Part shown: positions 4,252 to 4,836 of the stretch, piece after piece
How the letters are laid out: every line of letters begins with the position of its first letter
Numbering within the stretch: the stretch's first letter is position 1
Sequence record: PV611058
Source: Escherichia phage WPEC3
Length of the DNA: 64,000 bases
Reading direction: 5' to 3' (one strand)
Notes under the pieces: generated by a model
What the model was told of the DNA's origin: nothing
The model's database searches: none
Seen by the model: the letters and a program-made list of their open reading frames with translations, nothing else
Program-made: the position numbers and the translations under genes

Positions 4252-4836
4252 TTATCGTGTTACCTTACTTGCTGCCACATCACGCTTTTTATAGTACTGA
4301 TTCCAGATATTGCTGGTTAAACCGTAATCAAGTACTTTAATAAGTCCATTACGATCCTGGCCGATATTCTGTTTTCTGATATCTCTTATCGTTAGTGTTG
4401 ATAATGTATCATCAACGTGTTGTAGTGCATCAGCAAAGCGGTGCTGGCGTTCGATTGCATTACGTTTAATATTGTACTTTAATTCATTGCACGCGTTTAC
4501 GTGCTTCACACTACCTTTGCTTGCAGTACTCAACCGATCCATAACGATAAACATATTATCAGGATCGCATAAATGCATATGCACCTTTGCAAAGTACTGT
4601 TTCAACTGAGGGCGGTCATAGTCTAAAAAATTCCATACCTTACATTCAGTTTCATTTTGTTCTACACCCGCATCACAATTCGCGACCTTAATCACTAACC
4701 GATCATTTAAAGCGAAAACTATACGGGAAGAACCAGCACCGATGATCTCCAGGCCAGCTAACCGACAAGCTGAAAGGATCTCTTTGTTGGTTTCCATTTC
4801 TGACAGTGTACGGATGAATTTAGTATAATTACGCAT
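4252..4836 (-). CDS. putative mini protein kinase-like protein (194 aa)
   Basis: ATG at 4836 after SD AAGGAG; motifs IGAGSSRIVF (Gly loop), VIKVA, RDIRKQN (D-x-K-x-x-N), DYG. Confidence 0.6.
   Translation of the reverse strand: MRNYTKFIRTLSEMETNKEILSACRLAGLEIIGAGSSRIVFALNDRLVIKVANCDAGVEQNETECKVWNFLDYDRPQLKQYFAKVHMHLCDPDNMFIVMDRLSTASKGSVKHVNACNELKYNIKRNAIERQHRFADALQHVDDTLSTLTIRDIRKQNIGQDRNGLIKVLDYGLTSNIWNQYYKKRDVAASKVTR

Follow-up and report, generated by a model that had tools for sequence, protein, structure and literature searches.

Minimal protein-kinase-like proteins of PHROG 4301 in Escherichia phage WPEC3 end at or shortly after the DFG-equivalent motif

The DNA analysed here is a stretch of 64,000 nucleotides from Escherichia phage WPEC3 (sequence record PV611058), referred to below as the window. 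It contains two genes, designated A and B, which encode small proteins of the phage family PHROG 4301 (function unknown). Judging from sequence, both proteins are best interpreted, with a probability of roughly 0.55, as stand-alone, minimal protein-kinase-like phosphotransferases of a phage-specific type. They are incomplete kinase domains, in which nothing canonical follows the equivalent of the DFG motif. The source is a jumbo E. coli phage of the Asteriusvirus type (G17/121Q/PBECO4-like); around gene A, the sequence identity is 99.5% to phages ph0011 and fEgEco12 and 97% to G17, whose orthologue of gene A is found at coordinates identical to those in the window. Both reading frames are also annotated in GenBank records; the two genes are located as follows:

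4252..4836, minus strand: gene A, 194-amino-acid minimal protein-kinase-like protein, A-type of PHROG 4301 (start codon ATG at 4836, stop codon TAA at 4254-4252)
54347..54718, minus strand: gene B, 123-amino-acid minimal protein-kinase-like protein, B-type of PHROG 4301 (start codon ATG at 54718, stop codon at 54349-54347)

An earlier, sequence-only reading of this DNA had described both proteins as kinase-like on the basis of their motifs, and this view is supported by the present analysis. The motifs are found as they had been quoted, namely IGAGSSRIVF (residues 32-41), VIKVA (48-52), RDIRKQN (151-157) and DYG (170-172) in A, and YAIKIP (18-23), DAKPENFG (103-110) and KLDYGD (118-123) in B. 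The catalytic loop of A had been given as D-x-K-x-x-N, which has to be corrected to D-x-x-K-x-N, with Arg at position +2 and Lys at +3; the loop of B has the canonical D-x-K-x-x-N form. Protein A consists of an N-terminal two-helix extension, the Gly-rich loop G33-x-G35-S-S-R38, K50, the alphaC residues N61 and E64, the catalytic loop D152...N157, D170-Y-G172 and a 24-residue tail with one helix. The key residues of B are G7, R10, K21, N38 and E41, D103-A-K105-P-E-N108 and D120-Y-G122, and a single further residue separates G122 from the stop codon. The pair formed by the beta3 Lys and the alphaC Glu is thus represented by K50 and E64 in A and by K21 and E41 in B.

Conservation was counted in an alignment of 183 family members, over the residues present at each position and in the numbering of B. 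G7 and R10 of the Gly-rich loop are found in 179/179 members each, the beta3 Lys (K21) in 180/180 and the Asp of DYG (D120) in 177/177. In alphaC, N38 is present in 177 and E41 in 180 members, and G110, located after the catalytic loop, is present in 175. The position of D103 in the catalytic loop is occupied by Asp in 142 and by Glu in 35 members (Asp or Glu in 177/177), and that of N108 by Asn in 140 and by Ser in 31. The motifs proposed in the sequence-only reading therefore align properly across the family, and the invariant columns are the kinase catalytic residues.

Profile searches point in the same direction. When the family profile was compared with all Protein Data Bank (PDB) sequences, 278 matches at E<=1 were obtained, the best 60 of which were all eukaryotic-like protein kinases, and protein A alone retrieved 19 matches, all of them kinases, with MKK4 as the best one (E 0.0047). 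The profile matches protein kinase A (PKA) residue for residue at K72, E91, D166/K168/N171 and D184, so that the ATP-binding and catalytic residues of the canonical eukaryotic protein kinases (ePKs; PF00069) are shared in register, and the catalytic loop DAKPEN of B is nearly canonical for these enzymes. Among 131 members searched against Pfam, six matched Pkinase (E<=0.1, best E 5.7e-6) and three matched ABC1; non-kinase families were each matched by at most two members. Searches of A and B against NCBIfam gave no matches, and PADLOC returned weak matches for A alone, to the kinase of PD-T4-6.

A and B are homologous to each other. Both match the hidden Markov model (HMM) of PHROG 4301, A with an E-value of 1.8e-41 over profile positions 13-185 of 225 and B with 1.8e-42 over positions 40-167. 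The alignability of the two proteins had already been proposed; by pairwise BLASTP it is weak (E 0.04) and spans only the stretch from the catalytic loop to DYG, but it becomes firm at the profile level. A profile built from 121 B-type proteins, without A-type sequences, aligns to residues 30-172 of A (E 2.4e-8), and a direct comparison of the A-type and B-type profiles with hhalign yields a probability of 98.1% and an E-value of 7.5e-14. An HMM search of all 383 six-frame open reading frames (ORFs) of the window revealed no further paralogues besides A and B.

The predicted structures of both proteins fall into the kinase-like fold, which is thereby established at the level of prediction; placement outside this fold had been named as a possible refutation. 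AlphaFold2 models computed with family alignments reached a predicted local distance difference test score (pLDDT) of 96.1 and a predicted template modelling score (pTM) of 0.86 for B, and of 94.2 and 0.90 for A. Both models comprise beta1-beta2-beta3, a long alphaC, beta4-beta5 and alphaE, followed by two short strands around the catalytic loop and then DYG. The model of A has four further helices, two at the N-terminus, one as an insertion ahead of alphaE and one at the C-terminus. The top structural matches include JAK, APH(2'')-Id, BRAF, PknB, Rio2, Rio1, Bud32, TTK and PINK1, and the small kinases Ark1 (173 amino acids), TkArkI (216 amino acids) and OspG (169 amino acids) are matched as well, with 105 to 136 residues aligned.

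The most unusual feature of the two proteins is the position of their C-termini. Beyond the DFG-equivalent Asp, B has three more residues and A has 24, and in 114 of 132 short relatives the chain end lies within four residues of this Asp. Because the chain ends just after it, A and B lack the activation segment, the P+1 loop, the APE motif and the helices alphaF to alphaI, which correspond to Hanks subdomains VIII-XI of the canonical ePKs. What is retained is the five-stranded sheet of the N-terminal lobe (N-lobe) with the Gly-rich loop and its invariant Arg, the beta3 Lys and alphaC Glu, alphaE, the catalytic loop with the Asp base and the Asn Mg ligand, and the Mg-binding Asp of DYG. An annotation error or pseudogene as the origin of the truncation was rejected, as this end point is shared by the 114 short relatives mentioned and is seen across 117 phage records. 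A split kinase, whose C-terminal lobe (C-lobe) would be encoded by the downstream gene, was also rejected. The downstream genes vary by lineage and encode an 89-amino-acid protein of PHROG 8563, ORFs of 69-73 amino acids, an ORF of 131 amino acids, rnlB, denV or a pyrophosphohydrolase; clustering of the neighbours at 35 loci revealed no conserved partner gene.

PHROG 4301 is a large family. When 1.84 billion representatives of clusters at 50% identity were searched exhaustively with an HMM, 2,115 clusters were retrieved at E<=1e-3, of which 669 reached E<=1e-10. Most members have a length of 110-135 amino acids, and a minority, the A-type, of 190-215. B-type genes were found by tblastn in 117 GenBank phage records, including Asteriusviruses, the T4-like Dhakavirus JS10, rV5-like coliphages, jumbo phages of Aeromonas and Erwinia, Ralstonia phage RP12 and Pseudomonas siphophages of about 58 kb such as PaMx11. 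The A-type is restricted to 59 records, all of which are Rak2/Asterius-like jumbo phages. A search of genome contigs with the pattern DxKPEN[FY]GY, a single narrow pattern of low sensitivity, gave no cellular homologues. A few metagenomic proteins of 640-970 amino acids contain three to five A-type units in tandem (P0038, 923 amino acids; P0084, 638; P0085, 782; P0086, 969; P0104, 693). Each of these units has its own GxGSSR, VxK, QNxxE and LDYG motifs; the proteins have no significant Pfam match, with a sub-threshold ABC1 match for P0084.

The closest characterised analogue is the T7 gp0.7 kinase (T7K), which belongs to a different family and is possibly a distant relative of the A-type. The kinase domain of T7K (residues 1-242, with DPV at 213-215) has been purified and is active, hyper-promiscuous and without preference for a sequence motif (PMC13645617). 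Like A and B, T7K is encoded by a phage; it is expressed early, as is probable for A, and has a kinase core that, as in A, follows an N-terminal helical region with 'AG[FL]..[LI]G.G'. It shares with A the Lys in 'VIK' and a D-x-H/K-x-x-N catalytic loop, which reads DMHSGN in T7K and DMHxRN in some A-type proteins. Furthermore, both chains extend for about 20-30 residues beyond the DFG-equivalent Asp and lack alphaF to alphaI; in the T7K domain, only about 29 residues follow this Asp. The two groups differ in that T7K has DPV or DP (PMC13645617) where A and B have DYG, and T7K lacks the Gly-loop Arg and the alphaC Asn, which are invariant in the A/B family. A and B in turn lack the shutoff (SO) DNA-binding domain or basic C-terminal domain of the Autographiviridae members of the T7K family, and the B-type is about 100 residues shorter than T7K and shows no profile similarity to it. 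With hhalign, T7K aligned to the A-type profile with a probability of 42% (E 2.6e-4) over 146 collinear columns, which include the 'AG[FL]..G.G' preceding the Gly loop, 'VIK', the catalytic loop and the Mg-binding Asp, and to the B-type profile with a probability of 0.9%; both values were obtained with a shallow T7K alignment (eight sequences, effective number of sequences 2.4). In Foldseek, proteins of the T7K family match the model of A with E-values of about 1e-5 and a TM-score normalised to the query (TMq) of about 0.55.

A homologue of the T7K kinase has been reported in the jumbo phages G17 and Munch (PMC13645617), and the Sharanji paper (PMC11895373) names two proteins, a T7K homologue (WNN14432.1) and 'another protein kinase' without an assigned function (WNN14351.1). 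The latter is encoded by the orthologue of gene A. The former (gp144) is the product of a third gene (locus L007, 2183-2857); it has 224 amino acids and an ITDP motif and matches PHROG 15752/2828. These two PHROGs are matched by T7K (8.4e-138) and by Sharanji gp144 (1e-97 and 6.9e-16), but are not among the matches of A and B at E<=1. The idea that gene A or gene B is the T7K homologue of G17 (PMC13645617) was thus rejected, as that type, with PHROG 15752/2828 and ITDP, is a different gene. The site that corresponds to gp144 of Sharanji is located about 3 kb upstream of gene B in the window. No ORF of the window matches the T7K-type homologue, and no gene of similar size is annotated at this site in fEgEco12. 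Since gp144 is carried by some Asteriusviruses and is unmatched here, the set of mini-kinases varies between close relatives.

Other small or divergent kinases differ from A and B in what they retain after the metal-binding Asp. OspG/NleH and HopBF1 work inside eukaryotic cells as type III effectors, with E2~ubiquitin as a requirement in the case of OspG. These proteins keep a helical remnant of the C-lobe after DFG, of which B has nothing and A one short helix, and no match between them and A or B was found at the sequence level. RIO, Bud32 and ArkI (Ark1) keep the C-lobe helices after the metal-binding Asp as well and differ from A and B in the signatures of the Gly loop and the catalytic loop; they are cellular proteins with roles at the ribosome, in tRNA modification or as tRNA kinases. 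The PHROG 4301 profiles match classical ePKs rather than the RIO, Bud32 and ArkI families.

If A and B are protein-kinase-like phosphotransferases, ATP-Mg would bind between the sheet of the N-lobe and the catalytic and DYG loops, and the gamma-phosphate would be transferred to a hydroxyl acceptor. As there is no activation loop to switch, the enzymes should be constitutively active, and the missing substrate groove of the C-lobe would leave them with little intrinsic sequence selectivity. Protein A would most likely be produced right after entry of the DNA and phosphorylate host proteins, thereby contributing to takeover or to anti-defence as T7 gp0.7 does; an early, host-directed role is suggested by the position of its gene in the terminal repeat among promoter and terminator cassettes. 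Gene B would belong to the accessory genes that are widely exchanged, and its expression would take place in another operon of small genes, next to denV. By analogy, T7K, which is truncated in a similar manner and active on its own, serves as a precedent for activity of A and B. The B-type proteins of about 120 amino acids consist of the N-lobe, alphaE and the catalytic and Mg loops, and end at DFG. The further proposal that they are autonomous active enzymes, and as such the smallest functional protein-kinase-like domain known, is put forward only tentatively. If it holds, the scaffold of the kinase C-lobe (alphaF and the hydrophobic spines) would be dispensable for catalysis, and the B-type would be a constitutive, selectivity-free tool of phosphorylation for host takeover or counter-defence.

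Several points weigh against the interpretation of A and B as protein-kinase-like phosphotransferases. The E-values of the PDB sequence matches are about 1e-3, and A scores 17 bits against Pkinase (E 0.004), below the gathering threshold of 31.7, while B has no Pkinase match in Pfam. AlphaF, the anchor of the hydrophobic spines in canonical kinases, is absent from both proteins, so that autonomous stability or activity of the 123-residue form is not guaranteed. The minimal kinases OspG and Bud32 require a partner protein. The link to T7K is weak by sequence (42% for the A-type, nothing for the B-type), and what suggests immediate-early expression of gene A is its position together with promoter-like motifs. 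Finally, the only genes that recur beside the family encode nucleic-acid enzymes (denV, in two lineages that are unrelated to each other, and RNA ligase 2, in JS10), a hint of non-protein substrates.

The last point leads to a different acceptor. A and B could be active phosphotransferases of the kinase fold whose substrate is a nucleic-acid end or ribose hydroxyl, a nucleotide or a small molecule, comparable to aminoglycoside phosphotransferases (APHs) or to the archaeal tRNA 2'-kinase ArkI/Ark1, with a role in nucleic-acid repair or metabolism. Non-protein acceptors would be well accommodated by an open active site that lacks a peptide-binding C-lobe, and the models match APH enzymes and the RNA kinase Ark1. 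Pyr_excise/denV is the sole recurrent Pfam family among 96 neighbour proteins from 25 non-redundant loci, and it is found beside the B-type in Asteriusviruses as well as PaMx11-like Pseudomonas siphophages. At three loci of these siphophages (L039, L042 and L044), the start of denV overlaps the stop of the kinase-like gene, and at a fourth (L045) a 58-amino-acid ORF lies between the two, in each case at about 2900-3990; in PaMx11, a dATP/dGTP pyrophosphohydrolase follows, with a DNA ligase and an exonuclease nearby. In the T4-like phage JS10 (L003, 2977-4354), the mini-kinase gene is located 2 nucleotides upstream of rnlB, which encodes RNA ligase 2. The adjacency to denV and rnlB may reflect a functional link to nucleic-acid repair or the co-transfer of an accessory module; in the former case, the B-type would be a new class of nucleic-acid kinases linked to denV and RNA-ligase repair modules. 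However, the sequence profiles match protein kinases (PKA, MELK, MKK4, PKC) and not APH, choline-kinase or Rio/Bud32 proteins, denV is adjacent in two of about 15 lineages sampled, the other neighbours being structural, lysis or unknown genes, and gene A has no such neighbours. Moreover, the products of denV, a 5'-phosphate and a 3'-unsaturated aldehyde, need no obvious kinase. A non-protein substrate is considered less likely than protein acceptors, but a serious alternative, above all for B.

The absence of alphaF to alphaI, the canonical kinase scaffold, would also fit nucleotide-binding pseudo-enzymes, which act as a sponge, switch or scaffold, or subunits that depend for activity on a host or phage partner which provides the missing C-lobe surface, as OspG does on E2~ubiquitin and Bud32 on Kae1, and the tandem proteins with three to five A-type units (P0038, P0084-P0086 and P0104) fit a mode of working through contacts between domains. 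However, besides the Lys-Glu pair and the DFG Asp, the family conserves the catalytic Asp and Asn, for which a pure binder has no need; this favours active enzymes. No conserved phage-encoded partner gene was found by neighbour clustering, and the similarly truncated kinase domain of T7K is active alone in vitro (PMC13645617). This explanation is regarded as less probable still. It is highly improbable that the motifs arose by convergence in another ATP-utilising alpha/beta fold of the SAICAR-synthase-like or ATP-grasp-like kind, as the sequence profiles retrieve only protein kinases with all catalytic residues in register. In addition, the Pfam families matched by at least three of the 131 members are all kinase families (Pkinase, six; ABC1, three), the PADLOC matches go to the kinase-based PD-T4-6, and neither a structural similarity to SAICAR-synthase-like or ATP-grasp-like folds above that to kinases nor their signatures were found.

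Minimal protein-kinase-like phosphotransferases thus remain the preferred interpretation, parts of which have been anticipated by annotation. The type of gene A already carries a kinase label in ph0011, PBECO4 (UniProt L7TKF0), K64-1 and fENko-Kae01, and the kinase-like nature of its orthologue has been mentioned (PMC11895373). Nearly all records label gene B as 'hypothetical'; kinase labels are carried by two distant homologues. Literature searches found no paper on the family, its size or its truncation at DFG. What is new is a family of radically minimised kinase-like domains that end at DFG and that may include the smallest kinase-like enzymes. A protein of about 120 residues with all kinase catalytic residues provides a test of the minimum fold that is required for ATP binding and phosphotransfer, and B-type proteins could serve as a compact scaffold for engineering. 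In almost every phage genome the PHROG 4301 members bear the label 'hypothetical', for which 'minimal kinase-like protein' could be substituted. The phage kinases T7K and JSS1_004 are broad anti-defence weapons (PMC13645617, PMC12345140); if the preferred interpretation is correct, the anti-defence biology of phage kinases would extend far beyond the Autographiviridae, by way of a second family, much larger and more widely distributed, of even smaller proteins.

The expression signals around gene A are the following:

4845..4850, minus strand: Shine-Dalgarno sequence AAGGAG of gene A, read directly from the sequence
4865..4893, minus strand: candidate sigma-70-type early promoter of gene A, TTGCCA-17-TAATAT, from a consensus scan
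4205..4240, minus strand: putative terminator, a terminator-like hairpin 3' of gene A with a 12-bp stem (4240-4213)

The Shine-Dalgarno sequence (4850-4845), which the sequence-only reading had already assigned to gene A, is located 8 nucleotides 5' of the ATG. That reading had also placed a promoter in the 3' end of the upstream gene. Such a site is present at 4893-4865, with its -35 element inside the 3' end of the upstream gene and its -10 element overlapping the stop codon of that gene, and the -10 and leader region is a 71% copy of a repeated early terminator-plus-promoter cassette (family D9). The match to the consensus, on the other hand, is weak (9 of 12 positions), and matches of this level are not rare here (17 observed versus 10 +/- 3 expected); the site may function as a promoter of gene A. 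The hairpin that follows the gene contains an embedded promoter-like site for the next gene, TTGACT-17-TATTAT (4233-4205).

Gene A is located inside a direct terminal repeat of 21.5 kb that is annotated in vB_Ec-M-J (OQ718158.1, 1-21525), and a repeat that covers it is also annotated in the fEgEco-related phage fENko-Kae01 (OR228459.1). As a consequence of its location in a long direct terminal repeat, the gene is present in two copies per packaged genome. Between the small genes that make up the terminal-repeat region, a cassette of a terminator hairpin and a consensus sigma-70 promoter occurs again and again. These intergenic cassettes of 37-75 nucleotides on the minus strand (3749-3823, 4053-4089, 6597-6671 and 6866-6940, and also 5107-5177 and 5383-5453) combine a GC-rich hairpin (GGGGAACCATTCCCC) with the promoter (TTGACA...TATAAT) and cut the region into many early transcription units of a single gene. 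Spurious ORFs with a TTG start, 'MTVLKCFS', derive from the cassette promoters.

In the surroundings of gene B, three further features were assigned:

54076..54345, minus strand: 89-amino-acid ORF of PHROG 8563 (function unknown), translationally coupled to gene B
55798..55825, minus strand: perfect sigma-70 consensus promoter TTGACA-16-TATAAT, about 1.1 kb upstream of gene B
53650-54063, minus strand: HNH endonuclease gene, 137 amino acids, between the gene-B operon and denV

The promoter at 55825-55798 is a candidate for transcribing a series of small genes on the minus strand, gene B among them; co-transcription is suggested by the tight spacing of the genes and the lack of a convincing terminator between them. 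The coupling of the 89-amino-acid ORF is evident from a GGAG within the last codons of gene B and an ATG 1 nucleotide past its stop codon. This ORF is not a conserved partner of the kinase-like family, as neighbour clustering revealed no downstream family that is kept across lineages. The sequence-only reading had placed gene B next to the HNH endonuclease gene and denV; the context is right, but the genes are not immediate neighbours, since the 89-amino-acid ORF lies between gene B and the HNH gene. denV is located at 53158-53595 and matches Pfam Pyr_excise with an E-value of 2.5e-15. The HNH gene is present at this position in fEgEco12 and absent from it in Sharanji and 121Q; because of this absence, it looks like a mobile homing-endonuclease insertion. 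Further along on the minus strand, at 51316-52866, a protein of 516 amino acids with no significant Pfam match is encoded, which contains about six tandem repeats of about 60 amino acids with the motif 'VCIIDPVYGEFWQTPSxH'.

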